A stretch of DNA of 64,000 bases, from NCBI GenBank assembly GCA_030390025.1, contig CM059432.1, positions 70,496,001 to 70,560,000 of the forward strand. The letters are read 5' to 3'. Numbering within the stretch: the first letter of the stretch is position 1; the number at the start of each line of letters is the position of its first letter. Positions 8,789 to 63,035 of the stretch are shown here, piece after piece. This DNA is from Squalus acanthias (lineage: Eukaryota). The translations under genes were made by a program, and so were the position numbers. The notes beneath the pieces were generated by a model. It saw only the letters and a list, made by a program, of their open reading frames with translations. It did no database searches and had not been told where the DNA came from.

Positions 8789-9540
8789 TCTTCCTGCAGG
8801 TGCCTCTAACATGCAAAGGCAGAAGCTTGGCAGCCTGCAGAGGAAGCAAGGCTTGTTGCAGACCTTAAATGCTGCAGCAATGATGACGTCATCGGAAGAG
8901 ACTTTCAGACTGGAAAAATTCACTGGCCATGGGTTCCCACACGTTGGAACTCAATTGGCCAATTATGTTAAAATCGCATCAATCTCCCACATCGATTTAG
9001 ATTCGGGTGGCTAACACAAAATGCGGATTACACGATCCCAACCCACCCCTGAATCAAAATCCAGCCCTTTGTGTTCTCCTCACAGCTAACTGTCCCACCT
9101 AGCTTGGTATCATCAGCAAACTTGGATACATTACACTCAGTCCATTCATCTAGATCATTAATATAGATTGTAAATAGCTGAGGCCCCAACACTGATCCTT
9201 GCTGCACCCCACTAGTTACAGCCTGCCAACCTGAAAAAGATCTCTGTTTTCTGTCCGTTAACCAATCCTCTATCCATGCTAATATATTACCCCCAACCCC
9301 ATGAGCTCTAATCTTGTGTAATAACCTTTTATGTGGCACCCTATCAAATGCCTTTTGGAAATCAAAATATACTACATCCACTGGCTCCCGTTTATCTATC
9401 CTGCTAGTTACATCCTCAAAAGACTCTAATAAATTTGTCAAACACGATTTCCCTTTCATAAAACCATGTTGGCTCTGCCTAATCATGTTATGATTTTCTA
9501 AGTGCCCTGATACCACTTCCTTAACAATGGATTCCTGGGG

Positions 9541-9628
9541 AATGGTAGCATAGTGGTAATGTCACTTGGCTAGTAATCCAATAGACCTGGACTAATGATC
9601 CAGAGACATGAGTTCAAATTCCACCACG
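9541..9628 (+). promoter_or_regulatory. tRNA-derived Pol III internal promoter (A and B boxes)
   Basis: A box tagcatagtgg 9546-9556; B-box-like gagttcaaattcc 9610-9622, followed by accac. Confidence 0.7.
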
Positions 9629-9952
9629 GCAGCTGGGGAATTTGAATTCAGTTAATTAAATAAATTTGGAATAAAAGATAAAGCTAGTATCAGATAATGG
9701 TAAGCATGAAACTATCGGATTGTTGTAAAAACCCAGCTGGTTCACTAATTTTCTTCAGGGAATCGGCCGTGACTCCAGACCCACAGCAATGTGGTTGACT
9801 CTTAACTGCCCTCTGAAATGGCCTAGCAAGCCACTCAGTTGTAACAAACCGATACAAAACAAAATAATAAAAATGAAACCAGATGGACCACCTGGCATCG
9901 ACCTCGGCACCAGCTACGGACACGGCAATGGCACACCCAGCCCAGTCAACCC

Positions 9953-12900
9953 TGCAAAATCTTCCTCACCAACATCTGGGGACTTGTGCCAAAATTAGGA
10001 GAGCTGTCCCACAGACTAGTCAAGCAACAGCCTGACATAGTCATACTCACAGAATCATACCTCTCAGCCAATGTCCCAAACATCTCCATCACCATTCCTG
10101 GGTATGTCCTGTCCCACCGGCAGGACAGACCCACCAGGGGTGGTGGCACAGTGGTATACAGTCAGGAAGGAGTGGCCCTGGGAGTCCTCAACATTGACTC
10201 TGGACCCCATGAAGTCTCATTGCTTCAGGTCAAGCATGGGCAAGGAAACCTCGTGCTAATTACCACCTACCGCCTATGAATCAGTACTCTGCCATGTTGA
10301 ACACCACTTGGAAGAAGCACTGAGGGTAGCAAGGGCACAGAATGTACTCTGGGTAGGGGACTTCAATGTCCATCACCAAGAGTGGCTCGGTAGCACCACT
10401 AACTGACCGAGCTGACAGGTCCTGAAGGACATAGCTGCCAGTCTGGGCCTGCAACAGGTGAGGAGAGAACCAATATGAGGGAAAAGCCTACTTGACCTCG
10501 TCCTCACCAATCTACCTGTCGCAGATGTATCTGTCCATGACAGTATTGGTAGCAGTGACCACCGCACAGTCATTGTGGAGACGAAGTCCCGTCTTCACAC
10601 TGAGGACACCCTCCATTGTGTTGTGTGGCACTACCACCGTGCTAAATGGGATAGATTCAGAACAGATCTAGCAGCTCAAAACTAGACATCCATGAGGCGC
10701 TGTGGGCCATCAGCAGCTGCAGAATTGTATTCCACCACAATCTGTAACCTCGTGGCCCGGCATATCCCTCACTCTACCATTATCATCAAGCCAGGGGACC
10801 AACCTGGTTCAATAAGGATTGTAGAAGAGCATGCCAGGAGCAGCACCAGGCGTACCTAAAAATGAGGTGGGAAGCTTCAAAACAGGACTACATGCATGCT
10901 AAAAAGTGGAAGCAGCATGCTATAGACAGAGCTAAGCGATCCCACAATCAACGGATCAGATCAAAGCTCTGCGGTCCTGCCACATCCAGTCGTGATTGGT
11001 GGTGGACCATTAAACAACTAACGGGAGGACGAGGCTCCATGAATATCCCCATCCTTAATGATGGTGGAGCCCAGCACGTGAGTGCAAAAGACAAGGCTGA
11101 AGCGTTTGCAGCCAGAAGTGCCGAGTGGATGATCCATATCGGTCTCCACCATCACAGAAGCCAGTCTTCAGCCAATTCAATTCACTCCACGTGATATCAA
11201 GAAACGACCGAGAGCAATGGATACAGAAAAGGCTGTGGGCCCTGACAACATTCTGGCTGTCGTGCTGAAGACTTGTGCTCCAGAACTAGCCGCGCCTCTA
11301 GCCAAGCTGTTCCAGTACAGCTACAACACTGGTATCTATCCGACACTGTGGAAAACTGCCCAGATATGTCGGGCTGGATTTTGTGAATGGAGGCGGGACA
11401 GCTGCTTGTCGTGTCAATGTCCCACCTCCATCCTCGCCTGACCAACCAGAGGGATTTTCCCCTGATTGAGCTTGTTAAGCCCGCCCTGCAGGTTCAGCAG
11501 GCCAATTAGGGAGGAAGTCACTGACAGATCACGTCAACGTCAGACTTACTATCTGTCAAGACTTCTTCAAAGAAGAAATGTCAGCGTTTGACAGCTCTGT
11601 GACGCTGTCAAACACTGACATTCTCTTTAGTTTGATGAGTTCTTGTGTTCAGGACTCATCAAACCTTTCAAATGTATAAATTTCACATGGCTGTTGGTAT
11701 GGAGGTTCCATCAGCCAGTCTGTGAGATTGACAAGGAGGATGTCGGCTCTCCCGATCCACCGCGGCTGAAGGCTGTAGAAAGAAAACAAGGTAAGTGAAC
11801 ACTTTTTAAAACTTATCACTCACCTTGCATACTTACCACTCCACACTTGCACCCATCACTCACCTCTACAACTTACTTCCAGGTGCCTCCAACCACCGCA
11901 GACCTCCTCCACATCTCCTCCAACCCGGCGGGGTTCTCCGAGGTCGGAAGCCTTCACCTGTGAAGGTAAAATGGCACTAATCCTTTTTTCTGCCTGTTAA
12001 CCACCTGTTAACAGGCAGTTAAAAGGATTAAATGCCTTTTCCACCTCCAGGAGACGGGACCCGAAGCTGCACATCTTCCCGCCTCCGGGCAAAAGGGCAC
12101 GGAGGCGGGATGGGGGCGGCTTTGCTTCCGCCCCCACTTTCTCCGAATTTAACGGCTGTACCGCCTCCATGCCCGCCTCCTCGGGGCTTGGAAAATCCAG
12201 CCCGTCCTGTCCACAAAAAGCAGGACAAATCCAGTCCGGCCAATTACCACCCCATCAGTCTACTCAATCATCAGTAAAGTGATGGAAGGTGTCATTGACA
12301 GTTCTATCAAGCAGCACTTACTCACCAATAACCTGCTCACTGATGCCCAGTTTGGATTCTGCCAAGACCACTCGGCTGCTGACCTCATTACAGCCTTGGT
12401 TCAAACATGGACAAAGGAGCTGAATTCCAGAGGTGAGGTGAGAGTGACTGCCCTAGACATCAAGGCAGCATTTGACCAAGTGTGGCATGAAGGAGCCCTA
12501 GTAAAACTGAAGTCAATGGGAATTGGGGGGAAAACTCTCCACTGGTTGGAGTCATACCTAGCACAAAGGAAGATAGTTGTGGTGATTGAAGGTCAATCAT
12601 CACAGCCCCAGGACATCGCTACAGGAGTTCCTCAGGGCAGTGTCCTCGGCCCAACCATCTTCAGCTGCTTCATCAATGACCTTCCCTCCAACATAATGTC
12701 AGAAATGGGGATGTTTGCTGATGACTGCACAGTGTTCAGTGCCATTCACAACTCCTCAGATAATGAAGCAGTCCATGCCTGCATGCAACAAGACCTGGAC
12801 GATGTTCAGGCTTGGGCTGATAAGTGACAGGTAACATTCACGCCACAGAAGTGCCAGGCAATGACTATCTCCAACAAGCGAGAGTCTAACCACCGCCCCT

Positions 12901-13556
12901 TGACATTCAATGCCATTACCATCGCCGAATCCCCCACCATCAACATCCTGGGGGTTACCATTTACCTGAAACTTAACTGGACCAGCCACATAAATACTGT
13001 GGCAACAAGAGCAGGTCAGAGACTAGGTATTTTGCGGCGAGTGTCTCACCTCCAGACTCCCCAAAGCCTTTCTACCATCTACAAGGCACAAGTAAGGAGT
13101 GTGATGGAATACTCTCCACTTGCCTGGATGAGTGCAGCTCCAACAACACTCAAGAAGCTCGACACCATCCAGGACAAAGCAACCCGCTTGATTGGCACCC
13201 CATCTACCACCTTAAACATTCACTCCCTCCACCACCGGTGTACCGTGGCTGCAGTGTGTACCATCTACAAGATGCACTGCAGCAACTCGCCAAGGCTTCC
13301 TCGGCAGCACCTCCCAAACCCGCGACCTCTTCCACCTAGAAGGATAAGGGCAGCAGACGCATGGGAACACCACCACCTCCAAGTTCCCCTCCAAGTCACA
13401 CACCATCCTGACTTAGAAGTATATCGCTGATCCTTCATCGTCGCTGGGTCAAAATTCTGGAACTCCCTACCTAACAGCACTGTGGGAGTACCTTCACCAC
13501 AAGGACTGCAGCGGTTCAAGAAGGCGGCTCACCACCACCTTCTCAAGGGCAATTAG
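9953..13556 (+). pseudogene. LINE APE endonuclease plus reverse transcriptase ORF, disrupted
   Basis: NIWGL...PDIVILTES...RQDRPTRGGG, GDFN, SDH, QFGF, DIKAAFD, GVPQGSVLGP, FADD, ending ...HHLLKGN*. Several stops and frameshifts. Confidence 0.9.
11371..12203. mobile_element. Harbinger-type MITE inserted in the LINE ORF
   Basis: Perfect 12-bp TIR gggctggatttt/aaaatccagccc; TSD gtc (11368-11370, 12204-12206); internal hairpins. Confidence 0.9.
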
Positions 13557-14715
13557 GGATGGGCAATAAATGCTGGCCTTGCCAGCGTTGCCCACATCCC
13601 ATAAACGAATTTAAAAAAAATAGATTCGAGCATTTTCCCGATGACTGATGTCAGGCTAACTGGCCTGTAGTTCCCTGTTTTTTCTCTCCCTCCTTTCTTG
13701 AATAGCAGTGTTACATTTGCGACCTTCCAATCCGCTGAGACCATTCTAGAATCTAGGAAATTTTGGAAGATCAAAACCAATGCATCCACTATCTCTTCAG
13801 CCTCCTCTTTTAGAACCCTAGGATGTGAGCCGTCAGGTCCAATGGATTTGTTGGCTTTTAGTTCCGTTAGTTTCTCTAGTACTTTTTCTCTACTTATATT
13901 AATTTGGATCACTTTCACGTGGAGTTTTTGTTTCTCAATGGAATGTATTTTTGTTGAGAATTATGAAATATTTCTTTAAATGCTAGCCACTGCTTATCTA
14001 CCGCCATACCTTTTAATCTATTTTTCCAATCTACCTTAGCCAACTCGCCCCTCATACCTATGTAATTGGCTTTATTTAAGTTTAAGACTCTAGTTTCGGA
14101 CTTAGGCAAGTCACTCTCAAAATTAATGTGAAATTCTATCATATTATGATCACTCTGCCCCAGAGGATCCTTTACTATGAGATTGCTAATTAACCCTGTC
14201 ACATTACACATTAGAAGATCTAAAATAGCCTGTTCCCTGGTTGGTTCCATGACGTATTGTTCTAGGAAACTGTCTCGAATGCATTCCATGAACTCGTCCT
14301 CCAGACTACCTTTGCCAATTTGATTTATCCAGTCTATATGAAGATTAAAGTCCCCCAAGATTATTGCATTACCTTTGTTGCAAGCTCCTACTATTTCTTG
14401 ATTAATATTCTGTCCAACGGTATAGCTACTGTTAGGGGGCCTCTCTACTACGCCTACCAATGTTTTCTTCCCCTTGTTATTCCTTATCTCCACCCATACT
14501 GATTCTACTTTCTAATCTTCCGAGCCAACATCCTTTCTCGCTACTGTCCTTATGTCATCCTTTATTATCAGGGCTGCTCCCCCTCCTTTTCCATTCAGCC
14601 TGTCTTTTCAAAACGCCAAATACCCTGGAACATTTAGTTCCCAACCTTGGCCACCTTGCAACCATGTCACTGTAATGGCTATTAGATCAAACCCATGTAT
14701 CTCTATTTGTGCCAC

Positions 14716-26869: not shown

Positions 26870-27955
26870 TCCACTAGCTGGAGTCATGCCTAGCACAAAG
26901 GAAGATAGTTGTGGTTGTTGGAGGCCAATTATCTCAGCCCCAGGACATCACTGCAGAAGTTCCTCAGGGCAGTGTCCTAGGCCCAACCATCTTCAGCTGC
27001 TTCATCAATGACCTTCCCTCCATCATGAGGTCAGAAGTGGGGATGTTCGTTGATGATTGCGCAGTGTTCAGTTCCATTCGGACCTCCTCAGATAATGAAG
27101 CAGTCCGTGCCCGCGTGCAGCAAGACCGAGATGACATTCAAGCTTGGGCTGATAAGTGGCAAGTAACATTCCAGCCACACAAGTGCCAGGCAATGACTAT
27201 CTCCAACAAAAGCATGTCTAACCACCGCCCCTTGACATTCAACAACATTAGCATCGCCGAATCCCCCGACATCAACATCCTGGGGGTCACCATTGACCAG
27301 AAGCTTAACTGGACCAGCCACATAAATACTGTGGCAGCAAGAGCAGGTCAGAGGCTAGGTATTCTGCGGCGAGTGTCTCACCTACTGACTCCCCAAAGCC
27401 TTTCCACCCATCTACAAGGCACAAGTCAGGAGTGTAATGAAATACTTCCCACTTGCCTGGATGAGTGCAGCTCCAACAACACTCAAGAAGCTCGAAACCA
27501 TCCAGGACAAAGCAGCCCATTTGATTGGCACCCCATCCACCACCTTAAACATTCACTGACTCCACCATCAGCGTACCGTGGCTGCAGTGTGTACCATCTA
27601 CAAGATGCACTGCAGCAACTTGCCAAGGCTTCTTCGACAGCACCTCCCAAACCCATGACCTCTACCACCTAGAAGGACAACAGCAGCAGACACATGGGAA
27701 CACCACCACCTCCAAGTTCCCCTCCAAGTCACACACCATCCTGACGTGGAAATATATCGCCGTTCCTTCATCATCGTTGGGTCAAAATCCTGGAACTCCC
27801 TCCCCAATAGCACTATGGGAGTACCTTCACCACATGGACTGCAGTAGTTCAAGAAGGTGGCTCACCATTACCTTCTCAAGGGCAATTAGGGATGGGCAAT
27901 AAATGCTGGCCTTGCCAGCGATGCCACGTCCCAGGGACGAATAAAATTTTAAAAA
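26870..27955 (+). mobile_element. 5'-truncated copy of the 9536-13618 LINE family
   Basis: ORF 26911-27672 (VPQGSVLGPTIF, FVDD) and the same 3' end aagggcaattagggatgggcaataaatgctgg. Confidence 0.9.
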
Positions 27956-30700: not shown

Positions 30701-31294
30701 TGAGAAAAGGGGTGGCAGGGAGCAGCTAGATTTTTTTTCTCTCATTGTTATGTGTTTGGAACATTGTGAACATAGTGGCAGGATTTCCTTTGGTTGTACA
30801 TATGTTCTTTTAGAGCAATTTACGATATTGCTAGAAATAGCGAACAGAAAATCTTGATGCTATGTTTACTATCACTATTCAAAACTTAAATCTTAACCCA
30901 ACGTTCCCTGTTCTCCCATCTCCCAGTTAATTTTGGAAAGCTTTCGATATGGATTTATTTCAGAGATTACTTAAGATTAGGACCCACAGAATAGGAGATC
31001 AAATAGGGGTTCAAAAGCAGAAAAATTAATAGGACCTTAAAATTATCCCATGTTATGTTAATGTTATGTTAATACTAAAAGCATTAGAAATAACATTTTA
31101 GAGTTAGTCATATGCAGGTATTAGACAGCTTAGATATTCTAGGTAACTCCTGAAACATGGGTCTATTTTCTTTGGGCCATTGGAGTAACAATAGGTTAGC
31201 CCAATGCCACTGGGAGAAATGATTCTACAGGGGCCCCGGTAGAAAGGCACTACTAAAACAATGCAGGTACATATAAATGACAGTGGTTTCATTA

Positions 31295-33092
31295 TTTTTT
31301 AAATTAATTCCTGAGATGTGGGCGTCGCTGGCAATGCCAGCATTTAGTGCCCATCCCTAATTGCCCTTGAGAAGGTGGTGGTGAGCCGCCGCCTTGAACC
31401 GCTGTAGTCCGTGTGGTGAAGGTACTCCCACAGTATTGTTAGGGAGGGAGTTCCAGGAATTTGACCAAGTGACGATGAAGGAACGGCGATATATTTCCAA
31501 GTCAGGATGGTGTGTGACTTGGAGGGGAACTTGGAGATGATGGTGTTCCCATGCACCTACTGCCCTTGTCCTTCTAGGTGGTAGAGGTCTCGGGTTTGGG
31601 AGGTGCTGCCGAAGAAGCCTTGGCCAGTTGCTGCAGTGCAGGTGGAGGGAGTGAATGTTTAAGGTGGTGGATAGGGTGCCAATCAAGTGGGCTGCTTTGT
31701 CCTGGATGGTGTCGAACTTCTTGAGTGTTGTTGGAGCTGCACTCATCCAGGCAAGTGGAGAGTATTCTACCACACTCCTGACTTATGCCTTGTAGATGGT
31801 GGAAAGGCTTTGGGGAGTCTGGAGGTGAGGCACTCACTGCAGAATACCCAGCCTCTGACCTGCTGTTGTAGTCACCGTATTTATGTGGTTGGTCCAGTTA
31901 AGTTTCTGGTCAATGGTGACCCCCAGAATGTTGATGTTGGGGGATTCGGTGGTGGTAATGTTGTTGAATGTCAAGAGTGGTTAGACTCGCTCTTGTTGGA
32001 GATAGTCATTGCCTGGCACTTGTGTGGCATGAATCTTACTTGCCACTTATCAGCCCAAGCCTGAATGTCGTCCAGGTCTTGCTGCATGCGGGCACGGACT
32101 GCTTCATTATCTGAGGAGTTACAAATGAACTGAACACTGTGCAAACATCTCCACCTCTGACCTTTATGATGGAGGGAAGGTTATTGATGAAGCAGCTGAA
32201 GATGGTTGGGTCTAGGACACTGCACTGAGGAACTCCAGCAGCGATGTCCTGGGGCTGAGATGATTGACGTCCAACAACCACAGCCATAAGAACATAAGTA
32301 ATAGGAGCAGGAGTAGGCCATTTGGCCCTTCGAGCCTGCTCCGCCATTCAATAAGATCATGGCTGATCTTCTACCTCATCTCCACTTTCCTGCATGATCC
32401 CCATATCCCTTGATTCCCATAATATTCAAAAATCTATCGATCTCTGTCTTGAATATACTCAACAACTGAACCTCCACAGCCCTCTGGGGTAGAGAATTCC
32501 AAAGATTCACCACCCTCTTGAGTGAAGAAATTTCTCCTCATCTCAGTCCTAAATGGCCAACCCCTTATTCTGAGACTGTGACCCCTGGTTCTAGACTCCC
32601 CAGCCATCTACCCTGTCAAGCCCTGTAAGAATTTTGTATGTTTCAATGAGATCACCTCTCATTCTAAACTCTGGAGAATATAGGCCTAGTCTACTCAATT
32701 TCTCATCATAGGACAATCCCCCCATCCCAGGAACCAGTCTGGTGAACCTTTGTTGCACTCCCTCTGTGGAAAGTATATCCTTCCTTGGCCAGATTGGATA
32801 TGTCGTGCTTTTTGTGGACCGGACATACCTGGGCAGTTTTCCACATTGTCAGGTAGATACCAGTGTTGTAGCTGTACTGGAACAGTTTGGCTAGAGGCTT
32901 GGCTCGTCTTCAACATGACAGCCGGGATGTTGTCTGGGCCCATAACCTTTGCTGTATCCAGTGCGCTCAGCCGTTTCTTGATATCACGTGGAGTGAATCG
33001 AATTTGCTGAAGACTGGCTTCTGTGATAGTGGGGACCTCGGGAGGGGGCCAAGATGGATCATCCACTCGGAACTTCAGGCTGAAGATGGTTG
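31295..33092 (-). mobile_element. 5'-truncated copy of the 9536-13618 LINE family, interrupted by CR1
   Basis: ORFs 31357-31773 and 32695-33150 match the 11.1-13.6 kb sequence. Confidence 0.9.
32286..32786 (-). mobile_element. CR1 3' fragment nested in LINE
   Basis: cataagaacataag tail plus ggagcaggagtaggccattt stem-loop and RT C-terminus. Confidence 0.85.
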
Positions 33093-33714: not shown

Positions 33715-35430
33715 GAGATTAAATTGGATATACAGCACTGAAACAGTCCATTTGGCCCAACCAGCGTTTATGCTCCACTCGAGCCTCCACCCGTTTTTCC
33801 TCATTTAACTCTATCAGCATAACCCTCTATTCCCCTCTCCCTCAGATGCTTGTCCAGCCTCCCCTTAAAGGCATCTGTACGATTTGCTTCAACCACTCCC
33901 TGTGGTAGCGAGTTCCACATTCTCACCACTCTCTGGGTAAAGAAGTTTCTTCTGAATTCCCTATTGGATTTCTTGGTGACTATCTATCTTATATTGATGG
34001 TCTCTAGTTTTCCTCTTCCCCAGAAATGGAACATCCTCTCTATGTCTACACAATCAAAATCTTTCATAATTTTAAAGACCTCTATTAGGTCACCCCTCAG
34101 CCTTCTCTCCAAGAAAAAAGAGACCCAGCCTCTTCATCATTTCCTGATGGGTATAACCTCGCATTTCTGATATCATCCTTGTAAATCTTTTTTGCACCCT
34201 CTCCAGTGCCTCTATATCCTTTATATAATATGGTGACCAGAATTGTACACAGTATTCCAAGTGTGGTCAAACCAAGGTTCGATACAAGTTTAGCATAACT
34301 TCTCTACTTTTCAATTCTATCCCTCTAGAAATAAACCCGAGTGCTTGGTTTGCTTTTTTAGTGTCAAAATCCTGGAACTCCCTCCCTAACAGCACTATGG
34401 AAGTATCTTCACCACACGGACTGCAGTGGTTCAAGGCGGCTCACCACCACCTTCTCGAGGGCAGTTGGGGATGAGCAATAAATGCTGGCCTTGCCAGTGA
34501 CACCCACATCCCAGGAACGAATAAAAACAATTAACCTGCGTTGCTACCTTTAGTAATTTGTGTATTTGTACTCAGATCCCTTTGCTCTTCTACCCCACTT
34601 AGATTCTTACTTTCCAAGTGGCCTTATTTTTCTTACCAAAATGTAATACCTCACATTTATGTGTTGAAATTCATTTGCCAATGATATGCCCATTCTGCAA
34701 GTTTATTAATGTTGTCTTTTAACTTGTAGTCCTCCTCAGTATTGACTATCACCCCCAATTTGGTATCCTCCACAAATTTAGAAATTGTGTTTTTGATTCC
34801 AAACTCGAAATCATTAATATAAATTGTGAACAACATTGGTCCCAGCACTGATCCTTGTGGGACCCCACTTTCCACCTTCCGCCACTCTGAATGGCTACCC
34901 TTTACCCCTACTCTCTGCTTTTTGTCTTGAAGCCAGCTAGCTATTCATTCTGCTACTTGTCCCCGAATCCACATTCTCTGACCTTATTCATTAGTCTATT
35001 ATGTGGTACCTTATTGAGGGCCTTTTGGAAATCTAGATAAATTGCATCTACTGCATTACCCTTGTCTACTCTCTCTGTTACCTCTTCAAAGAATTCAATG
35101 AGGTTGGTCAAGCAAAACTTTCCCTTTTGAAATCCATGCTGGCTATTCATTAATATATTTTTAGTTTCTAGATGTTCTTCTGTGTTCTCCTTTTAGTAGG
35201 GATTCCATTATTTTTACTACCACCGATATTAAGCTGACTAGTCGATAGTTCCCTGGACATGTTCTATCTCCCTTCTTAACTATAGGTATTACGTTAGCTA
35301 TCCGCCAGTCCTCTGGCACTACACCTTTTTCTAATGAATTATTAAATATGTGTAATAGTGCCTCTACTATCTCTTCCCTAGATTCTTTTAAAATGTGCAG
35401 ATGTAATCCGTCTGGACCAGGGGTTTTGTC
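33715..35430 (-). mobile_element. CR1 ORF2 fragment (RT plus 3' end)
   Basis: ORFs 34657-34875 (GVPQGSVLGP) and 34953-35150 (QHGFQKGKFCLTNL). Confidence 0.85.
34362..34528 (+). mobile_element. Short 3' end of the 9536-13618 LINE family nested in CR1
   Basis: gtcaaaatcctggaactccctccctaacagcact...ataaatgctggccttgccag. Confidence 0.85.
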
Positions 35431-36020: not shown

Positions 36021-39000
36021 TGTAGCTTTTAAAAGCTCTTTATAATAATTTGTCCGTGACTACACAAACCACTCTGGGTACAGGTATATTGTGTATCAGT
36101 AAAACAGGTTTATTAAGCATTAAACATCCAGTACAAAGAAGTAATACATAACAAGCAGATAGTCGCAGTCTGTTCATTAAACCCCGGCGTTCCTTCCGAG
36201 TGACTGTGACGCGGTCTCTTTATTCTCTTGCTGTGTTCCGTTGACTGAAGCTTCTCATCCTCTGGTTTCGCGCTGCCTTCAGTGTTCAATAGCTCTTCCT
36301 TTATACCTTTATTTCCCCTTCAAAATACATAGCAACATGCAGCTGCTTGGGCTATCTCTCCATTCTGACCTTCACAAGTACAGTCTATGATTCCCTCCCC
36401 TTTTCTTGTCAATCATCTTATGACCTTGTATTCAGTGCTGAGTACTGGTGAGGGCGATGGTTCCTCTGGGGAGTGCATCCAGAGCCAAGTCCACAGCACC
36501 ATGGAAGGCTCAGCTGCACAGGCGGGGCGGGGGGGGGGGGGGGGTGGGGGCGCAAGAGGAGAGGGAGACCAATAATGATAGGGGATTCAATAGTTAGGGG
36601 AGCAGACAGGCATTTCTGCAGCCGCAGACGTGACTCTAGGATGGTATGTTGCCTCCCTGGTTCCAGGGTCAAGGATGTCACTGAACAGCTGAAGGGCATT
36701 CTGAGGGGGGAGGGTGAACAGCCAGAGGTCGTGGTCCATATCGGTACCAACGACATAGGTAGGAAGAGGGATGAGGTCCTGCAGGCAGAGTTTAGGGAGC
36801 TAGGAAAGAGGTTAAAAAGCATCACCTCAAAGGTAGCAATCTCCAGATTACTACCAGTGCCACGTGCTAGTGAGTACAGAAATAGGAAGATAGAGCAGAT
36901 GAATGTGTGGCTGGAGAGATGGTGTAGGAGGGAGGGCTTTAGATTCCTGAGGAATTGGAACCGTTTCTGGGGGAGGTGGGACCTCTACAAGCCAGACGGG
37001 TTGCACCTCAACGGGAACGGAACCAATATCCTCGCGGGAGGGTTTGCTAGTGCTGTTGGGGAGGGTTTAAATTAGCTTGGTAGGGGGATGGGAGCCTAAG
37101 TATAGACTCAATAGGGAGGGAAGAAAAATTGGAAAACAAAAACGTAGAAAGTAAATTGGAAGGACAGAGGAATCGAGGGCTAGATAGTAGTCAACAAGGA
37201 GGTTTGCCTGTACTAAATGGTATATATTTCAATGCAAAGAGTATAGCGAACAAGGCAGATGAGCTGAGGGCACAGGTAGATACTTGGGACGATGATATTA
37301 TAGCTATTAGAGATGTGGCTGAAAGAGGGGCAGGTATGGCAGCTCAACATTCCTGGTTACAGGATTTTCAGACGGGATAAAGAGGGAGGTAAAAAGGGAG
37401 GGGAGGTCACAGTGTTGATTAAAGAAACTATTACAGCTGTGAGGAGGGATAATATGTTGGAGGGATCATCAAACGAGGCCATATGGGTCAAATTGAAAAG
37501 CAAAAAAGGGGCGATCACACTGCTGGGAGTGTACTACAGACCCCCAAACAGTGAGGGAGATAGAAGAACAAATATGTAGACAAATTTCTGAAGTGCAAAA
37601 ACTATAGGGCTGTAATAGTAGGGGATTTCAACTACCCCAATATTAACTGGGATAAAATTAGTGTGAAGGGTATAGAGGGTGCGGAATTCCTCAAATGCAT
37701 CCAGGAAAACTTTTTTAGCCAGTATGTAGCAAGCCCAACAAGGAAGGAGGCGGTTCTGGACTTAGTTTTATGGAATGAAGCTGGGCAGGTAGAAGGCGTA
37801 TCAGTGGGGGGAGCATTTTGGTGCTCGTGACCAAAATTCTGTTAGATTTAAGGTAGTTATGGAAAAGGACAAGGATAGACCAGGAATAAAAATTCTAAAT
37901 TGAGGAAAAGCAAATTTTGCTCAGCTCAGAGGGGATTTAGCCATAGTGGACTAGAAACAGCTACTTGAAGGTAAATCAGTGTCAGAGCAGTGGGAGGCAT
38001 TCAAGGAGGAGATCTGGAGGGTTCAGACCAAATATGTGCCCTTAAAGAAAAAAGGTGGGACTAACAAATCTAGAGCCCCCTGGATGTCTAGGGACATACA
38101 GGGTAGGATAAAGAAAAAATGGGAGGCGTATGACAGATACCGAGGGCAAAATACTCCAGAATCTTTAGAGGAGTACAGAAAGTGCAGGGGTGCAATTAAA
38201 AAGGATATTAGGAAAGCAAAGAGAGAGCATGAAAAATTCTTGGCAAGTAAAATCAAGGAAAACCCACAGATGTTTTATAAATCTATTAAGAGTAAGAGGA
38301 TAACTAAAGAAAGGATAGGGCCTATTCGAGATCATAAGGGTAATCTGTGTGTGGAGGCGGGAGACGTCGGTAGGGTTCTTAATGAATACTTTGCGTCTGT
38401 TTTCACAAAGGACGGGCGAAGCAGACATTGCTATTGGGGGAGGAGTGTGAAATATTAGATGAAATAAACACAGTGAGAGAGGAAGTATTAGGGAGTTTAG
38501 CAGCTTTAAAATTGGATAAATCCCCAGGCCCGGATGAAATGTATCCCAAGCTGTTAAGCGAAGCAAAAGAGGAAATCGCAGAGGCCCTGACCATCATTTT
38601 TCAATCCTCTCTGGCTTCAGGTGTGGTGCCGGAGGACTGCTAATGTGGTACCCTTGTTTAAAAAGGGAGAAAAGGATAGACCGAGTAATTACAGGCCAGT
38701 CAGCCTAACCTCGGTGGTGGGAAAATTATTGGAAAGAATTCTGAAGGACAGGATAAATCTTCATTTAGAAAGACACGGATTAATCAAGGATAGTCAGCAC
38801 GGATTTGTTAAGGGAAGGTCGTGTCTGACAAACTTGATTGAAAATTTTGAGGCGGTAACAAGGAGGGTAGATGAGGGTAGTGCGATTGATGTAGTGTATA
38901 TGGACTTTAGCAAGGCTTTTGATAAGGTTCCACATGGCAGACTGGTCATGAAGTTAAAAGCCCATGGGATCCAGGGCAAAGTGTCAAGTTGGATTCAAAG

Positions 39001-40479
39001 CTGGCTCGGAGACAGGAAGCAGAGGGTAATGGTTGATGGGTGTTTTTGTGACTGGAAGGCTGTTTCCAGTAGGGTTCCGCAGGGCTCAGTACTAGGTCCC
39101 TTGCTTTTTGTGGTATATATCAATGATCTAGACTTTAATATAAGGGGGTATGATTAAGAAGCTTGCAGATGATACTAAAATCAGCTGTGTTGTTGATGCT
39201 GAAGAAGGAAGCTGTAGACTGCAGGAAGATATCAATAAATTTGTCAGGTGGGCAGAACAGTGGCTAATGGAATTCAGTCTGGAGAAGTATGAGGTAATGC
39301 ATTTGGAGAGGGCTAACAAGGAAAGGGAATACACATTAAATGGTAGGACACTGAGTAGTGTAGAGGAACAAAGGGACCTTGGCGTGCATGTCCACAGATC
39401 CCTGAAGGTAGTAGGCCAGGTAGATAAAGTGGTTAAGAAGGCATACGGAATGCTTGCCTTTATTAGCTGTGGCATAGAATACAAGAGCAGGGGGGTTATG
39501 CTTCAACTGTATAAAACACTTGTTAGGCCTCAGCTAGAGTGCTGCGTGCAGTTCTGGTCACCACATTACAGGAAAGATGTGATTGCACTAGAGAGGGTAC
39601 AGAGGAAATTTACAAGGATGTTGCCGGGAGTAGAGAATCTTAGCTATGAGGAAAGACTGGATAGGCTGGGTTTGTATTCCTTGGAACTGAGGGGAGACCT
39701 TATTGAGGTGTGTAAAATTATGAGGGGCATTGATAAAGTGGATGGAAAGGACCTATTTCCCTTGGCAGATGGGTCAAAAACCAGGGGGCACAGATTTAAA
39801 GTAATTGGGGGAAGGTTTAGAGGGGACTTGAGGGGAAATTTCTTCACCCAGAGGGTTGTGGGGGTCTGGAACTCACTGCCTGAAAGGGTGGTAGAGGCAG
39901 GAACCCTAACCACATTTTAAAAAGTACTTGGATGTGCACTTGGGATGCTCTAACCTGCAGGGCTATGGACCAAAAGCTGGGAAGTGGGATTAGGCTGGAT
40001 AACTCTTTGTTGGCCGGCGTGGACACGATGGGCTGAAATGGCCTCCTTTCGTGCTGTAACTTTCTATGATTCTATGTTAGTTCCGCTAAGCCTATTTCTG
40101 TGCATAACAAAATACCTTTATCTAAGAAGTTCACTTTACAGAACATCCTTGAGGTGTTTTCTAAACGGTTTGTCTATTCTGCTATTTCTAAAATGAAGGC
40201 TCCAACTCCTATCACTTTTCCATAACATTACTGAACGCCACGTCCCTGACAGAGTCTCCGTGTTTACTTAGCACTACATTACATTCCTTCAGTAATTTAA
40301 AACCGAGGTTTTTAGTCAGGTTGGCATAATTTTCCCATCCTGCTTTGGTCTCAGCCATTCGTCATTTTATACAGGTTTTTTAGATTTTTAACATACAATT
40401 TCACATTATAGTTATATAAAAATGGATATAGAATCTTAATAATGTTTACTAAATCCTACAGGAAACACTCTATCCTACA
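36021..40479 (-). repeat. 3' LTR (about 36021-36429 plus 40076-40479), split by a CR1 insertion
   Basis: Both halves match 45521-46325 collinearly; the junction tgacct(c/t)gt|tagttccgc is intact in the other LTR. Confidence 0.9.
36430..40076 (+). mobile_element. CR1 LINE (ORF1 SGNH/GDSL esterase plus ORF2 EN-RT) inserted in the LTR
   Basis: ORF 36473-37075 IGDSIVRG...HIGTNDIG...DGLHLN; ORF2 pieces 37129-39920 (QHGFVKGRSCLTNL, LADD); tail ttctatgattctatg. Confidence 0.92.
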
Positions 40480-43447: not shown

Positions 43448-45454
43448 TCAGTAAAACTTTAGGTTTCTCTTTTTTTTTCTTTTTTTAAATCGGCATCTCA
43501 GCAACTTAGGGGTCACTTGAGTTCTAGTTAGGACACTAACTGGTTTCTCAATGTATGCGGAACCGTCCAGCGGGGGGTTTTCCATGTCACTGCTGACATA
43601 GGCTACGGGGGCTGCTGTAGGAGGAGGTGGTAAGGGAGGATATAATTCTCCCTCAGACGGTTTGCACCCTGGGCCTGTCTGTCTAGGACCTCGGCAATCC
43701 TTTGCAAAGTGTCCCACCTTTCTGCAGTTATAACATATCAAGGGTTGCTTACGGGGTGGCGTCCCTGGGTGGGCCTGAGGTCCCTCAACTACATGCACTG
43801 GCGTCTCTGCTGTTGGTACCTGGACCTGAGTTTTAGCGTAGGCCCATGCAGCATTAGCGTCTCTTAAAAGGTCTGTCCATTGCGAGTTGTGGCTGACAGT
43901 GTGCCCTAAGTCTGCTCGCAGTGAGGCCTGAATATTCTTTAAGTATATTTTCTTAAATGCTGCCTCATTCTTCCCGGTTAAGACATTATCATTGGGGCGT
44001 GCCTGCATCATCTCATAAACAGTGTACAACCGATCCCCGAATGCAGCAGGGATCTCATGAGGCCCTTGTTGAGACTGGCTTAATTTCTGAACCAGATCAA
44101 TAGTGTCCAAGCCCAGAGCTGTTTGTATAGTTGTGATTAAGTTATTCAGGGGGTTCCCCACATTAAAGGCAATGAATGGGAGACTGGTCCGTAGGTCCGG
44201 GGTCAAGGCAGACAGTATAACATTTTTCATGTCACTGTCCTCAAAACTAGGATGGTAATTCCGGAACCCCACTATACGTTGCCTTAGCTCCATGGGGCAT
44301 GTTTGTGGGTTAACTGGTCTGAATTGCTGGACACATGCCTGTAGTTCTGCATAGTTCAGGGGCTGGGACCATTCATAAGTACCCACCCACAGCATTCCCG
44401 GGTGGGCTGCCTCTGGTTGTGCTCCTGCTTGTGCCTGGACACCGTCAGCAGCTGGTGGCACGTTAGGAATCACCTGGGTGCGAGTCAGAATATTAACTGG
44501 GGCTTTAGCGGGTGCAGGCTCGTCCACTGAGGTTTTTATGATATTGTTATCAGCATAGGCTGGGAGCCTCTTAGCCAGGTCGATGGTGGCATATGAGACG
44601 GGGGCCTTTTGGGGAGGGGGTAGCAAGGGAGGATATAGTTCTCCACTTAACTCCTCACATTCTTTATCATAACTCACAGGGGGGTCTATTCCCGTGACTG
44701 CCGCTATTACAGCCTGTTGTTTACCCAGCTGGTTTTCCAACTGTTGTATAGTAATATGACACTGCCTGTGGTCCCGACTCCCTTTGGGGGTGCTGAAGAG
44801 CCTCTCTTAGGGCTCCTCATGAATCATTTAATTGTCTGGTAAGACAGTCATTGTCTTTTGTTAAGGAGGCTACCTGACACTGAGCCTCCTCAAGGTTCTA
44901 CATTGCAGCGCCAGCGTGAACTGCATTAATACTCTGGTGCTGTATTATTGCTGTCTAAGCACCAACCAGGCACTGAAGAACTTCATTTTGTTTCTGAAGA
45001 GCTTCATTCTTACTTTTTAACTCTGCAGCCTCTTTTTCCCAGTTTGACTTCTCGCCCGTTAACTTTAGATTCTCTTCTATCAGCCGTAGCTTGTCTTTTT
45101 CTAATTTATCCTGGTTGTCCTCTAACTTGATTTTATTATTTTCCATCTCTAGGAAGGTCTCTTTATCTTGCTCTACACAATACACAGCTGCACTGCCCTA
45201 TCTGGCTTCCATTTCTTCTCCTTAACTTGTTTCTCAATGAACGCAACAACGTCGTCAAAGGATACTCTCTCACCCTTGGTTAGACATTCTACTACTAACG
45301 TCTGTAACTGTGCATCCTCGCACTTCTTCATTAACTTCGTTTTAAAGTCTACAAAAAAATTCTCACTCAACATTCTGCTGTACGTTAAAGAGACACTATC
45401 TGTTAGATAACCTAACTTTCCACAAGGACTTTCATTGATCAGTCAAAAATCCAT
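43448..45454 (-). pseudogene. gag: gag-like gene: N-terminal coiled-coil, capsid-like region, CCHC zinc knuckle; 5' part frameshifted, 430 codons open
   Basis: ATG 45454 about 47 nt after the PBS; ORFs 45173-45373, 44955-45185 and 43448-44740; CYNCRKVGHFAKDC at 43694-43735. Confidence 0.85.
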
Positions 45455-46692: not shown

Positions 46693-47079
46693 TTTTTTTT
46701 TTTAAAATTGTTTATGGGATGTGGGCGTCGCTGGCAATGCCAACATTTATTGCCCTTGAGAAGGTGGTGGTGAGCAGCCTTCTTGAACCACTACAGTCCA
46801 TGTGGTGAAGGTACTCCCACAGTGCTGTTAGGTAGAGAGTTCCAGGATTTTGACCCAGCGATGATGAAGGATCGGTGATATACTTCTAAGTCAGGATGGT
46901 GTGTGACTTGGAGGGGAACTTGGAGGTGGTAGTGTTCCCATGCGCCTGCTGTCCTTCTAGGTGGAAGAGGTTGTGGGTTTGGGAGGTGTTTAAGGGGGTG
47001 CCAATCAAGCAGGCTGCTTTGTCCTGGATGGTGTCGAGCTTCTTGTGTTGTTGGAGCTGCACTCATCCAGGCAAGTGGC
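46693..47079 (-). mobile_element. 3' fragment of the 9536-13618 LINE family with internal deletions
   Basis: LAWMSAAPTT...SKSWNSLP; A-tail at about 46693-46703. Confidence 0.85.
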
Positions 47080-53845: not shown

Positions 53846-56800
53846 AACAATGGATTCCAGCATTTTCCTGACGACTGATGTCAGGCTAACTGGCCTGTAG
53901 TTCCCTGTTTTCTCTCCCTCCTTTCTTGAATAGCGGTGTTACATTTGCTACCTTCCAATCTGCTGGGACCGTTATAGAATCTAGGGAATTTTGGAAGATC
54001 AAAACCAATGCAATCACTATCTCTGCAGCCACCTCTTTTAGAACCCTAGGATGTAGGCTGTCGGGTCCAGGGGATTTGCCGGCTTTTAGCCCCATTAGTT
54101 TCTCTAGTACTTTTTCTCCTCTTATATTAATTACGTTAAGTTCCTCACCCTCATTAGACCCTTGGTTCCCCACCATTTTTGGTATGCTTTTTGTGTCTTT
54201 TACTGTGAAGACAGATACAAAATATTTGTTTAACATTTCTGCCATTTCCTTATTCCCCATAATAATTTCTGCTGTCTCAGGCTCTAAGGAACCAACATTT
54301 ACTTTTGCTACTCTCTTCCTTTTTACATACTTGTCGAAGCTCTTACAATCTGTTTTTATATTTCTTGCTAGTTTTCTCATTTTATTCCCTTTTTATCAAT
54401 TTTTTGGTCCTCCTTTGCTGGTTTCTGAAACTCTCCCAATCCTCAGGCTTACTACTATTCTTTGCAACATTATGAGAGTCTTCTTTCAATCTAATGCTAT
54501 CCTTAACTTCTTTAGTTAGCCACGGATGGATCACTTTTCCCGTGGAGTTTTTGTTTCTCAATGGAATGTATTTTTGTTGAGAATTATGAAATATTTCTTT
54601 AAATACCAGCCACTGCTTATCTACCGCCATACCTTTTAATCTATTTTTCCAATCTACCTTAGCCAACTCGCCCCTCATACCTATGTAATTGGTTTTATTT
54701 AAGTTTAAGACTCTAGTTTCGGACTTAGGCAAGTCACTCTCAAACTTAATGTGAAATTTTATCATATTATGATCACTCTGCCCCAGAGGATCCTTTACTA
54801 TGAGATTGCTAATTAACCCTCTCTCATTACAGAATACAAGATCTAAAATAGCCTGTTCCCTGGTTGGTTCCATGACACATTGTTCTAGAAAACAGTCCCT
54901 AGTGCATTCCATGAACTCGTCCTCCAGACTACCTTTGCCAATTTGATTTGTCCAGTCTATATGAAGCTTAAAGTCCCAAACAATTATTGCATTACCTTTG
55001 TTACAAGCTCCTACTATTTCTTGATTAATATTCTGTCCAACAGTATAGTTACTGTTGGGGGGCCTATATACTACTCCCACCAGTGTTTTCTGCCCCTTGT
55101 TATTCCTTATCTCTACCCATACTGATTTACTTCCTGATGTTCTGAGCCGAGATCTTTTCTCTCTACTGTCCTTATGTCATCCTTTATTATCAGGGCTACC
55201 CCCCCCCCCTTCTTTTCCATTCTGCCTGTCTTTTTGAAACATCAAGTACCCTGGAACATTTAGTTCCCAACCTTGGTCACCTTGCAACCACGTCTCTGTA
55301 ATGGCTATTCGATCAAACCCATTTATCTCTATTTGTGCCATTAGTTTGTCTATCTTATGAATGCTTTGTACATTCAGATAAAGAGCCTTTAATTTAATTT
55401 TTTTTAACCAGTGTTCCTTGCTTTGACCTTGATTTCTGCTGCACTGCTACCATTGAACTCTCTGTCCCTTCCTGTCACACTCTGCTTATTTCTACCCAAA
55501 TCGCTACACTGCTCTATTGCCTTGACCTTTCTCTTTAGATTTCTAAATTTCCCCTCACCTGACCCCTCCCCCCCACCTTTTTCAGTTTAAAGCCCTATCT
55601 ACAGCCCTAGTTATTCGATTCGCTAGGACGCTGGTCCCAGCCCGGTTTAAGTGGAGCCCGTCCCAATGGAACAGCTCCCTCTTTCCCCAGTACTGGTGCC
55701 AGTGCCTCATGAATTGAAACCCCTTCTTCCCACATAATTCTCTGATCTGCTTGACCCTTTGCCAATTTGCACGTGGCTCAGGTAGTAATCCAGAGATTAT
55801 TACCCTTGAGGTTCTGCTTATTAATTTAGACCCTAGCTCTTCAAACTCCCTCAGCAGAACCTCATTCTGAGTTCTATCTGTCGTTGGTTCCTACATGGAC
55901 CACAACAACTGGATCCTCACCCTCCCACTCCAAGTTCTTCTCCAGCCGCGGGGAGATATCCTTAACCCAGCCTCAGGGACTCTCTTTCGTGGCTGCAGAG
56001 AACAGTATCTATCCCCCTGACTATACTGCCCCCCTCCCACTACCACATTCCTTCCTTCTTCCCCCCCCCCCCCCCCCCCGCCCCCCACCACCTGGATGGC
56101 CCCCTGTACCACGGTGCCATGGTCAGTTTGCCCATCCTCCCTGCAGTCCTTTTCCTCATCCACACAGATAGCAAATACATCGTACCTGTTGGACAAGGTC
56201 AAGGGCTGAGGCTCCTCCATCACTATATCCTGGGTCCCCATACCTTCCTGACTCGCGGTCACACCCTCCTGTCGCTGACCATTGACTAACTCTAAAGTAC
56301 TGCTTAACCTAAAGGGTGTGACTGCCTCCTGGAACAAAGTGTCCAGGTAACTCTCCCCCTCCCTGATGCATCGCAATGTCTGCAGCTCGTACTCCAGCTC
56401 AATAACTCTGAGCCGAAGTTCCTCGAGTTGCAGACATTTACTGCAGATGTGGTTGCTCGGGATCACGATGCTCTCCACAAACTCCCACATGCTGCAGTTA
56501 CGACACACCACCTGGCCTGCCATCTCTAACCTTGTTTTATTTATTAATTAATTAGTTAAAGCTTTTATTAAATTGATATTTTAGTTTTATTGTTTATTTT
56601 ATCTAGTTTATTAATTTAATAAGTATTAGCAAGTTACAGTTTCTCAGCTCTTAATTTAACCCCTTCCCTAACTTAGAGAGCAAAAAAAAGCTGTAATCCT
56701 CACCAACCAATCACTTACCTGTTCTCCTGTGATGTCACTCTTTGATTTTTTTTTGTTGTTTCTGAATCGGAGCCTCGCGCTGCCGCTGCTTTAATTCAGG

Positions 56801-57894
56801 TCCGCTCTCGGGCCGCTCTTTATCCTCTCGCCGCTGCTTTAATTCAGGTCCACTCTCGGTCCGCTCTTTATTCTCTCGCCGCTGCCTTAATTCAGGTCCG
56901 CTCTCGGGCCGCTCTTTATTCTCCTGCCGCTGCTTTAATTCAGGTCCGCTCTCGGGCCGCTCTTTATTCTCTCGCCGCTGCCTTAATTCAGGTCCACTCT
57001 CGGTCCGCTCTTTATTCTCTCGCCGCTGCCTTAATTCAGGTCCACTCTCGGTCCGCTCTTTATTCTCCTGCCGCTGCTTTAATTCTGGTCCGCTCTCGGT
57101 CCGCTCTTTATTCTCCTGCCGCTGCTTTAATTCTGGTCCGCTCTTTATTCTCCTGCCTCTGCTTTAATTCAGGTCCGCTCTCGGGCCGCTCTTTATCCTC
57201 TCGCCGCTGCTTTAATTCAGGTCCGCTCTCGGGCCGCTGTTTATTCTCCTGCCGCTGCCACTGCTTTAATTCAGGTCCACTCTCGGTCCGCTCTTTATCC
57301 TCTCGCCGCTGCTTTAATTCAGGTCCGCTCTTGGTCCGCTCTTTATTCTCCTGCCGCTGCTTTAATTCAGGTCCGCTCTCGGGCCGCTCTTTATTCTCCT
57401 GCCGCTGCTTTAATTCAGGTCCGCTCTCGGGCCGCTCTTTATTCTCCTCGCGCTGCCACTGCTTTAATTCAGATCCGCTCTCGGGCCGCTGTTTATTCTC
57501 TCGCCGCTGCTTTAATTCAGGTCCGCTCTCGGTCCGCTCTTTATTCTCTCGCCGCTGCCTTAATTCAGGTCCACTCTCGGTCCGCTCTTTATTCTCTCGC
57601 CGCTGCCTTAATTCAGGTCCACTCTCGGTCCGCTCTTTATTCTCTCGCCGCTGCCTTAATTCGGGTCCACTCTCGGTCCGCTCTTTATTCTCTCGCCGCT
57701 GCCGCTGCTTTAATTCAGGTCCACTCTCGGTCCGCTGTTTATTCTCTCGCCGCTGCCTTAATTCAGGTCCACTCTCGGTCCGCTCTTTATTCTCTCGCCG
57801 CTGCTTTAATTCAGGTCCACTCTCGGGCCGCTCTTTATTCTCTCGCCGCTGCTTTAATTCAGGTCCGCTCTTTATTCTCTCGCCGCTGCCGCTG
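53846..57894 (-). mobile_element. 5' half of a second CR1 (same subfamily as the 5-14.7 kb copy) with a tandem-repeat 5' end
   Basis: ORF1 55891-56523 (MAGQVVCRNCSMWE...), EN 54382-55080, linker 53886-54380; breaks at aacaatggattcc. Confidence 0.88.
56783..57894. repeat. 48-bp tandem repeat (about 23 units) at the CR1 5' terminus
   Basis: Unit ccgctgctttaattcaggtccgctctcgggccgctctttattctctcg with minor variants; no unique spacers. Confidence 0.95.
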
Positions 57895-58054
57895 TTTTGA
57901 AAATAGCTATTTGTTTTGAAATTATTTGCTTTTTAAGAACCTACCTATATTCTTTTAAATATCAAATGAACTCTTGTTGCATTCTGCTGATGCTTGTTCC
58001 GTTCCTCAATTAAACAAGACAGCCCTTGTAATAATAGCCCCATCTAAATATAAC

Positions 58055-61304: not shown

Positions 61305-63035
61305 GGCCGCGATTTCGCCTAACTCGGTGGGTCCAGTGCGGCCGGGGTCGGTCGCGGGGTGTGACCCCACTGCTGGCCTCCAGCCCGCTCTTTGAAATGA
61401 TTTTACGCTGATTGGGCTTGTTAAGCTCGTCCAGCGTCTTTGCCGGCCAAATGAAGGAAGTCGGTCTGATGGCGTCACTTGATGACGTGTCATCAGCCGG
61501 TTTCCTTAAAGGGACCATGCGCAAATTGATTTTGACAGTCAGTGTTCTACAGCATTGAGGTGCTGCAAACACTGACAACACTGCATAGAGGTGCATGGCT
61601 GCACCCAGGCTCTCCCATGACTCCCTCCATATGCTTATGGAGGGAGTCACAGCACGCACGGAGGTCCTCTTCCCTTCCCATGAGCATAAGAGACCTCCCC
61701 AGGAGATCAACGCAGCCTGGTTGCACATTGCACAGGAGGACACAAGCAGGGATGTCGTTAGGAGGACCAGGTTTGCAGTGGCACAAACCTTTCAATGATC
61801 TCAGTAGATCACGAAATGTTACTGCAAAGCCACGCTCAACTTCATTCTGCTGTGCCACTCATCACATCACCTTCCCTACTCAACTCCTGCACATCCTTAC
61901 TCACACCAGCTTACCTTGCACCTCCACCCATCCCTCTCTATCTACCTTATCACATCCCCATCTCACTAGCCAGTCACCCTCATCCTAGTCCATTCATATG
62001 AACTAACAACACACAAGGGTAGGCACTTGGGTGTTTTAGCCAATGTTCATGTGAAGTTTCTGTTAATGTGCTGTCAAACATTGAAATCTTTATTTTCAAC
62101 ATTTTGCGTTCTTGGACAGATTTGCGTGCACCTTTGGAAGTGGCTTAGTGAGTTCCAGTGAATGGTGAGACATAACGGTACCCCCTGCAATGGTGATGAG
62201 TGTGAAAGGAATGGCTTGGGCATTGTAGAGATGCTTTATGGTGTTGGTGTGGGGTGGTGCCAACCTGGTGCATCATGTGGCAGCCAGCATGTACAGCATC
62301 AAGTGAAGTAAATCTGGCCATGGTGAGGCCATCCCTCAATGTGGTTGGGTGCTGATGCCCTGTGTCCTGTGCAGCACCAGCTGATTGTGGAGAAGGTTGG
62401 TGCTGCTGGTGTGCCCAGGTGATGCTGGTTTTGGGGCTGATTCTGAGGACCAAGGTGAGATTTTTTTCAAGGGCACCGATGCTGATGGAATAGATGGCAG
62501 GTGAGGTTGAGATGGCAGAAGCAATCTGTCAATGGTGAGAGGTTGCTCCAATGAGATGACACTGGATACAGAGTTTGCTCCAAACACTTGCTAGCTGCAT
62601 AAAGCTCAATCTGTCTTCCAAATGCAGTAAGCAACAGCTTCTAACCTTGGAAAGTGAACACCTATGAAATGGGAGCTTTTATATACCATTTGCAGCTGTC
62701 AAGTTAGTAAATCATCCCATACTGACACAACACCCGACCTCCTTACCTGATGTGATTCCCGAGCAGCGGGGAAGCCATTGGCGAACTCTTAAAATCTAAA
62801 GGTGAGCTTAAAATACTATTTAATTGCCTCTTAACAATCTCTTAATGATCTAATTTGCCTCCCCCACCGCTTGGTGTCGGGTCTGTTCAGCGATGACAGA
62901 CCCAACATCTGGGAGACTAGTGTGGAGGTGGGTTGACAGCAGGTTCCCTACCCGCTGTCCAAAAAAAAAAAATTCCCACCCGACCCGCCACCAAACGTGC
63001 CCGCTGACCCCCCAAATTCCCAAAAAATCCCCCCC
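61305..63035. mobile_element. Internally deleted Harbinger/PIF element
   Basis: TSD taa (61302-61304, 63036-63038); degenerate TIRs ggccgcgatttc / aaaatccccccc; Myb exon on +, transposase N+C remnant on - (62145-62453). Confidence 0.8.
61595..61812 (+). pseudogene. Harbinger Myb/SANT exon 1 remnant
   Basis: MAAPRLSHDSLHMLMEGVTARTEVLFP...AAWLHIAQE...RRT, then LQWHKPFNDL in a shifted frame. Confidence 0.8.

Follow-up and report, generated by a model that had tools for sequence, protein, structure and literature searches.

Retrotransposons are conventionally divided into long interspersed elements (LINEs), which encode proteins and are transcribed by RNA polymerase II (Pol II), and short interspersed elements (SINEs), non-coding units that RNA polymerase III (Pol III) transcribes (PMC2666806; PMC5786205, in the words of which "SINEs cannot encode a protein"). 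A locus of Squalus acanthias raises the question of whether a coding LINE may also be a Pol III unit. The window analysed is a stretch of 64,000 nucleotides (contig CM059432.1, positions 70,496,001 to 70,560,000), in which positions 9538-13620 hold a decayed, dead copy of an elasmobranch Zenon LINE. The family, abundant and 3.3 kb long, is of the type that has an apurinic endonuclease (APE) and a reverse transcriptase (RT) but no ORF1 (ORF, open reading frame). Its 5' end is a transfer RNA (tRNA)-like head with the A and B boxes of a Pol III promoter. A sequence-only reading of the window had proposed an autonomous LINE transcribed by Pol III, with a sense strand almost free of TTTT. The head belongs to the LINE family, and the source copies of headed Zenon were probably transcribed by Pol III, to judge from the sequence features set out below. 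The family itself is a known, published one; its conserved tRNA-promoter head is not remarked on in the main text of PMC13343379.

The head as a fixed part of the family

The genome searched amounts to 3.7 Gb. Among the best 40 of 9788 candidates scored with a query of head plus ORF, the 39 besides the window copy all span the head junction, 22 of them beginning at the base that matches 9538. Since this set is biased to full length, a separate search was made with the endonuclease alone. Of its 29 loci, 17 reach the tRNA part (11 start at most 4 nt from the family 5' end, six more within the tRNA part), ten start in the untranslated region (UTR), and two at the ORF start. The 12 truncated loci have no common alternative upstream sequence, save one 43-nt match between two of them. 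Other full-length copies therefore carry the same head at the same junction, as had been anticipated. A one-off SINE-LINE chimera is ruled out, the junction being common to many insertions and to published consensuses.

The 5' end is sharp: 48 of 59 LINE heads are intact at the start, and 45 of these have G at position 1; the base ahead of it is G in 6, which is at background (19%). The family 5' end, corrected here to 9538, lies 8 nt ahead of the A box. These data bear on an alternative in which an ancestral Zenon took a SINE as its 5' UTR and was a Pol II unit, its transcription driven by the conserved domain of the UTR or by the head as an enhancer. Its poverty in T would then reflect avoidance of U-rich polyadenylation or splice signals, or a codon or composition bias. 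LINEs are normally Pol II units (PMC5786205, PMC2666806), and the headless lepidopteran Zenon is described without a Pol III promoter (PMC6740152), both in favour of this alternative; the 5' end, however, coincides exactly with the start that a type 2 Pol III promoter would set, and no extra G is found upstream.

An elasmobranch Zenon

A majority sequence was built from 21 of the 39 copies fetched, chosen for being colinear and for lying whole within the retrieved DNA. Copies deviate from it by 3-5%. It is about 3310 nt long and has one open frame of 973 codons with endonuclease and RT domains, the domains having been read on natural copies. Elasmobranch Zenon elements are reported to lack ORF1 and to carry a poly-A tail (PMC13343379). 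SquAca_Zenon-1, 3314 nt long and likewise ORF1-less and poly-A-tailed, matches the family head nearly letter for letter by eye over its first 400 nt. The single APE-RT ORF without ORF1, the poly-A tail and this match to a named consensus over 400 nt identify the element as Zenon, of the CR1 group. Over the same first 400 nt, no structural difference was seen from SquAca_Zenon-1/2/3 or from the Zenon-1 elements CarCar, ScyCan, RhiTyp and HypSab (PMC13343379). In an RT tree of 49 rows, built with no named Zenon, the element stands apart from the CR1 of the window and adjoins environmental LINEs (98/93). A query for an older, divergent Zenon lineage, with a window piece of 80% identity, returned the same family.

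A head of this kind opens, as judged by eye, each of the five Zenon-1 consensuses published for elasmobranchs (white shark, catshark, whale shark and stingray besides Squalus). Their A boxes TGGCGTAGTGG, TGGCCTAGTGG, TGGCATAGTGG and TAGCGTAGTGG vary at degenerate positions only, a pattern that speaks against the Pol II alternative, and the spacers differ. The B box, also compared by eye, is canonical in three, a tolerated variant in the SquAca family and one base short in stingray. The headed consensuses contain no TTTT in the first 400 nt, the part compared; hagfish Zenon-1 and coelacanth Zenon-1 have no head, and have TTTT within that length (PMC13343379). The main text of PMC13343379 holds no mention of tRNA, promoter, polymerase or translation, and the whale shark preprint (10.1101/443036) mentions CR1-Zenon-like LINEs, in the part considered here, by abundance only. 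A search of the open literature, subscription journals and Repbase reports lying outside its reach, listed neither an autonomous Pol III LINE nor a tRNA head on Zenon.

The tRNA likeness of the head

The head (9538-9632) begins, as the sequence-only reading had claimed, with an A box (TAGCATAGTGG, 9546-9556) and a B box (9612-9620, family form GTTCAAATC). The window copy departs from GWTCRANNC at its final, invariant C, which is T here but C in the family majority. Two tandem anticodon-arm-like hairpins with loops CTAGTAA and CTAATGA, recognised by eye, lie between the boxes (9565-9603). The Rfam tRNA model aligns with the head at 14.3 bits (E 5.3), with a 24-nt insert that corresponds to this duplicated anticodon arm. 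Compared with 11 distinct tRNA genes of the shark genome, of isotypes Thr, Lys and Cys only, the head scores best with tRNA-Thr(AGT), at 49.6 against a shuffle maximum of 31.7 and 27-36 for Lys and Cys. The pair of A and B boxes is found in 16 of 21 natural shark copies and in none of 20 upstream regions of relatives, in a search with a positive control; in the Rfam scan of five relatives, a 14-bit head would fall below the listing level at that search size. The head thus appears tRNA-derived and resembles tRNA-Thr(AGT). Rfam otherwise gave chance matches only in the window region, and no ribozyme family was matched there.

Such a head need not promote the LINE. It could serve Pol III for a short SINE only, or act as an RNA structure, either a tRNA-like internal ribosome entry site (IRES) or an RNase P site trimming read-through, the LINE RNA coming from host Pol II transcripts. 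The 5' UTR of L1Tc, reported to contain a tRNA-like fold that RNase P cleaves and a putative IRES (PMC3383444), offers a parallel; the element does need an unusual initiation, and the two hairpins are kept, by eye, across species with different stems. The acceptor stem, however, looks broken by eye: the 5' GGGAACG is unable to pair with CACGGCA after the T arm, as in SINE heads. This explanation also leaves the loss of terminators over the 2.9-kb ORF, which the SINE lacks, unaccounted for, and we regard it as improbable.

Loss of Pol III terminators on the sense strand

TTTT and TVTTT are the shortest working Pol III terminators in mammalian cells (PMC8466645). Neither occurs on the sense strand of the majority sequence, against 19 occurrences on the antisense strand; as in a type 2 Pol III unit, the sense strand is free of internal T-run terminators. 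For the ORF, nulls predict 3.4-7.6 (P 0.018-0.0003), and natural copies have 0-3 each. The whole majority sequence contains no run of four T (T4), seven T3 and 15 A4. The ORF has 5 T3 where four nulls predict 11.2-21.9 (P no higher than 0.007), and windows with four T in five stay low even under a dinucleotide null (1 versus 6.4, P 0.012). In the window copy, leaving aside an inserted miniature inverted-repeat transposable element (MITE), the sense strand has T4 at 9749-9752 and 13030-13033 only. Both are private, the majority reading ATGTCC and ATTCTG there, and siblings at about 27358 (+) and 31848 (-) read TATTCTG at the second site; one private TGTTT lies at 12712. The two runs and the TTCT of the siblings are as the sequence-only reading had it, and the majority sequence, in keeping with that reading, has no conserved sense TTTT.

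Other LINEs of the same genome keep their T-runs, an observation that weighs against the Pol II alternative: the CR1 pieces of the window hold 29 terminators over 4846 nt, and an L2-like majority from 19 loci has 16 versus 18 expected. A metagenome scan gave distant relatives at 80 loci, 56 of them with an ORF of at least 350 codons. All 56 have T4; their TT odds ratio is 1.06±0.09 (minimum 0.85) against 0.71 here, and their observed/expected T3 1.13 (minimum 0.70) against 0.31. The nearest relatives have 11-36 terminators per ORF, the nearest of all 11. Terminator loss and head appear on the same branch, yet this is one evolutionary event, not many. At the other end of the element, T-runs before the A-tail are rare (at least four T in 3 of 38 copies), and no terminator of the T+ SINE type is therefore claimed.

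A selected ORF without an initial AUG

The ORF was under purifying selection. Over 95 copies there are 49 shared non-CpG changes, of which 26 are synonymous; of 2019 singletons, 487 (24%) are. Contigs of four other organisms show, among the differences listed, 38 in the ORF, of which 17 are left after dropping 21 private to the reference copy; 12 of these are synonymous and none makes T4. As the sequence-only reading had seen, there is a single long ORF; from stop to stop it measures 973 codons, about 2.9 kb, rather than roughly 2.8 kb.

No in-frame AUG occurs until codon 287, which lies beyond the endonuclease, and the frame is preceded by a TAA in the same phase, from which we infer that initiation would be non-AUG or by frameshift; this feature had escaped the sequence-only reading. 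The missing AUG is equally a problem under Pol II and Pol III: capped RNA would ease translation, a point for the Pol II alternative, but a cap would not supply the AUG. A short out-of-frame AUG ORF of 48 codons (9873-10019) overlaps the main ORF; of 81 heads, 53 carry its AUG, which the older subfamily lacks. Ahead of this AUG runs an A-rich stretch; the spacing across it is divisible by three in 34 of 38 copies, a result compatible with either frame. RTE elements are said to have a short upstream ORF.

Two further observations concern the start of the ORF. In non-shark relatives (P0027, P0032, P0034; L140:541-745), an in-frame basic stretch before the endonuclease resembles the N-terminal extension of the shark element; some non-shark relatives have Leu where others have Met in that stretch, hinting at non-AUG starts older than the head. 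A pseudoknot between a loop TAGC and a conserved GCTA before the ORF, as in an intergenic-IRES-like start, is no more than a lead, having only 4 bp and no covariation.

The absence of an AUG ahead of the endonuclease, with the TAA just upstream, would also suit a non-autonomous family, that is, a long Pol III "SINE" whose ORF is not translated and which a headless master mobilises in trans. No intact full ORF is present among the fetched copies, the longest LINE-derived open frame being 591 codons. Against this stand the majority ORF, open for 973 codons, the enrichment of shared changes in synonymous ones, and the 29 endonuclease-selected loci, in which no alternative 5' end is found; we consider the idea very unlikely.

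A companion SINE

Queried with the head only, 5 of 29 loci are head-plus-tail; queried with one such locus, 26 of 30 have a SINE build of 406-469 nt. This consists of the head, the UTR to about majority position 334, then the last ORF codons, the 3' UTR and the tail. A SINE made of 9536-9840 plus 13543-13618 had been foreseen: a head-plus-tail SINE does exist, but its tail begins further upstream than 13543. The SINE heads mostly form their own group, with variants common to the older LINE subfamily, and contigs of other organisms have head-to-tail joints at other breakpoints. These features fit an origin of the companion SINE by internal deletion of the LINE; the direction may have been from LINE to SINE, or a SINE may have donated the head. 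A 9-nt match between the SINE linker and the ORF was set aside, since it may be due to chance and also resembles the A-rich stretch of the LINE itself.

Probable transcription by Pol III

In the reading that we favour, TFIIIC would bind the internal A and B boxes, and Pol III would start at G1, read the 3.3 kb because terminators have been purged, and stop where the flank has its first T-run. Translation of the uncapped RNA would begin at a non-AUG start just past the conserved 5' UTR domain, and the APE-RT would prime reverse transcription at the 3' hairpin and A-tail, whereby every full-length copy would bring its own promoter. Internal deletions of the headed LINE would give a ready-made tRNA SINE. 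Pol III retroelements are reported to need ORF2p only (PMC2666806).

Several points weigh against this reading. The Rfam tRNA match is weak, ARAGORN finds no tRNA in the window, and the B box of the stingray consensus is one base short. An AATAAA stands about 40 nt ahead of the tail, a placement suited to Pol II RNA, which supports the Pol II alternative; two AATAAA within the 5' UTR, however, do not sit well with it. Headless Zenons are without ORF1 as well (PMC13343379, PMC6740152), and its loss therefore does not point to Pol III. Purifying selection on the part of the ORF ahead of the first AUG is only a possibility, 1 of 3 changes there being synonymous in the set of copies and 1 of 3 in the contigs of other organisms. 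The scarcity of TTTT, for which shuffled controls had been suggested, is by itself a weak signal: T4 in the ORF number 0 versus 1.8-4.4 expected, with P from 0.12 (synonymous shuffling, 1.8) to 0.008 across nulls. Under the dinucleotide null, T4 (0 versus 1.4, P 0.23) and T3 (P 0.095) are both not significant, and this lack of significance of the T4 loss once TT frequency is fixed is a point for the Pol II alternative; the signal is carried by T3, TT and TVTTT. C4 runs are low too under this null (11 versus 18.4, P 0.008). The TVTTT definition is mammalian-derived (PMC8466645) and was adopted after the data were seen, and Phe in the ORF, at 1.85%, is the lowest of 57. Much of the T signal is avoidance of the TT dinucleotide and of phenylalanine, which other pressures could cause. 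Taken with the arguments given above, transcription by Pol II is a minority view that deserves to be kept in mind, and transcription of the source copies by Pol III is the likelier account.

The copy in the window

The element lies on the plus strand, inserted in a CR1 on the minus strand. The near-duplication said to bound it, AATGGATTCC (9526-9535) and AATAGATTCG (13619-13628), is plausible as a 10-bp target site duplication (TSD) with two mismatches, since two other CR1 copies show the empty site as AATAATGGATTCCAGCATT; a scan of 21 other family copies found no convincing long TSD. The rest of the 5' UTR (9633-9844) ends at the in-frame TAA (9842-9844), and its 3' half is nearly invariant by eye across the five elasmobranch consensuses. 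Around majority positions 205-245 (window 9745-9770), many LINE and SINE copies have varied short deletions at GTCCTT direct repeats, a recurrent deletion hot spot.

The main ORF is broken in the window copy, the marks of decay being stops, frameshifts and an 833-nt MITE. Its 5' part (9845-11370) comprises a basic extension, the APE endonuclease and a linker, and its 3' part (12204-13556) the RT and the C-terminus up to TAG. Pfam Exo_endo_phos_2 and RVT_1 were matched in sister copies and RVT_1 in the window piece, which confirms the APE-RT order without ORF1. The MITE-like DNA element (11371-12203), missing from sister copies, has a 12-bp terminal inverted repeat (TIR), GGGCTGGATTTT, and a 3-bp TSD, GTC, both of which look PIF/Harbinger-like; it holds several internal hairpins, and a related 67-nt piece lies at 61399-61462. 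The 3' UTR (13557-13612) forms a hairpin with AATAAA, common to the companion SINE, and is followed by the expected A-tail (13613-13620). Four other truncated copies do lie in the window, at 26870-27946, 31292-33092 (interrupted), 34363-34530 and 46693-47078.

Other elements

A near full-length CR1 at 36452-39920 (+) has an esterase-like ORF1 frame and a broken ORF2. The tandem repeat at 56746-57932, with long open frames on both strands, lies just upstream of a minus-strand CR1 ORF1-like frame (55891-56547) and is possibly a CR1 5' UTR array. On the minus strand, 43448-44806 is open for 452 codons; the frame includes a CCHC zinc knuckle, looks gag-like by eye and is probably part of a long terminal repeat (LTR) element. 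Elsewhere in the genome, five Zenon copies (L106-L109 and L114, G000:C27 13.56-13.87 Mb) have the same internal deletion (majority 339-426) in both orientations and are likely segmental duplicates; another copy (L069, G000:C3267:654500-659500) is rearranged, with its 3' part inverted and a duplication.

Comparison with known systems

Lepidopteran Zenon and its short derivative Persaeus (PMC6740152) are like the shark pair in the single ORF, the poly-A tail and the derivation of the short element from 5' and 3' parts. Persaeus, which includes the Zenon 5' UTR, is described there without tRNA homology or a Pol III promoter, unlike the shark SINE. SacSINE1 and the CmiSINEs have L2 tails (PMC5499810), which the companion SINE of Zenon does not.

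LINEs with hepatitis delta virus (HDV)-like ribozymes such as L1Tc (PMC3383444) offer a precedent for uncapped LINE RNA, with a proposed cap-independent (IRES) translation. Their 5' end is made by self-cleavage, whereas no ribozyme family was matched in the shark element. If transcription by Pol III is true, the latter would be a natural model for AUG-less translation of uncapped RNA.

Like the companion family, tRNA-derived SINEs (SINE2), including bipartite ones with LINE 5' and 3' parts (PMC5786205), combine an A/B-box tRNA head with a LINE-type tail. Long and short shark elements both have such a head; the short non-coding build is found in the companion family and not in the 3.3-kb LINE, which, unlike SINE2, encodes an APE-RT. 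RTE-1_DAn and related elements, LINEs with tRNA-like sequence matching SINE2 heads (PMC5786205), are a possible precedent that differs in clade (RTE) and host (Drosophila); a literature search on RTE-1_DAn brought up nothing of relevance. In the published model of bipartite SINEs, which in the part considered here does not name this LINE clade as a source of such elements, the head joins an already deleted LINE (PMC5786205); here it stands on a full-length coding LINE. Transcription by Pol III, if true, would open a direct path from LINE to SINE in a single step, and a natural Pol III protein-coding unit kept across sharks and rays would break the division between the two classes.

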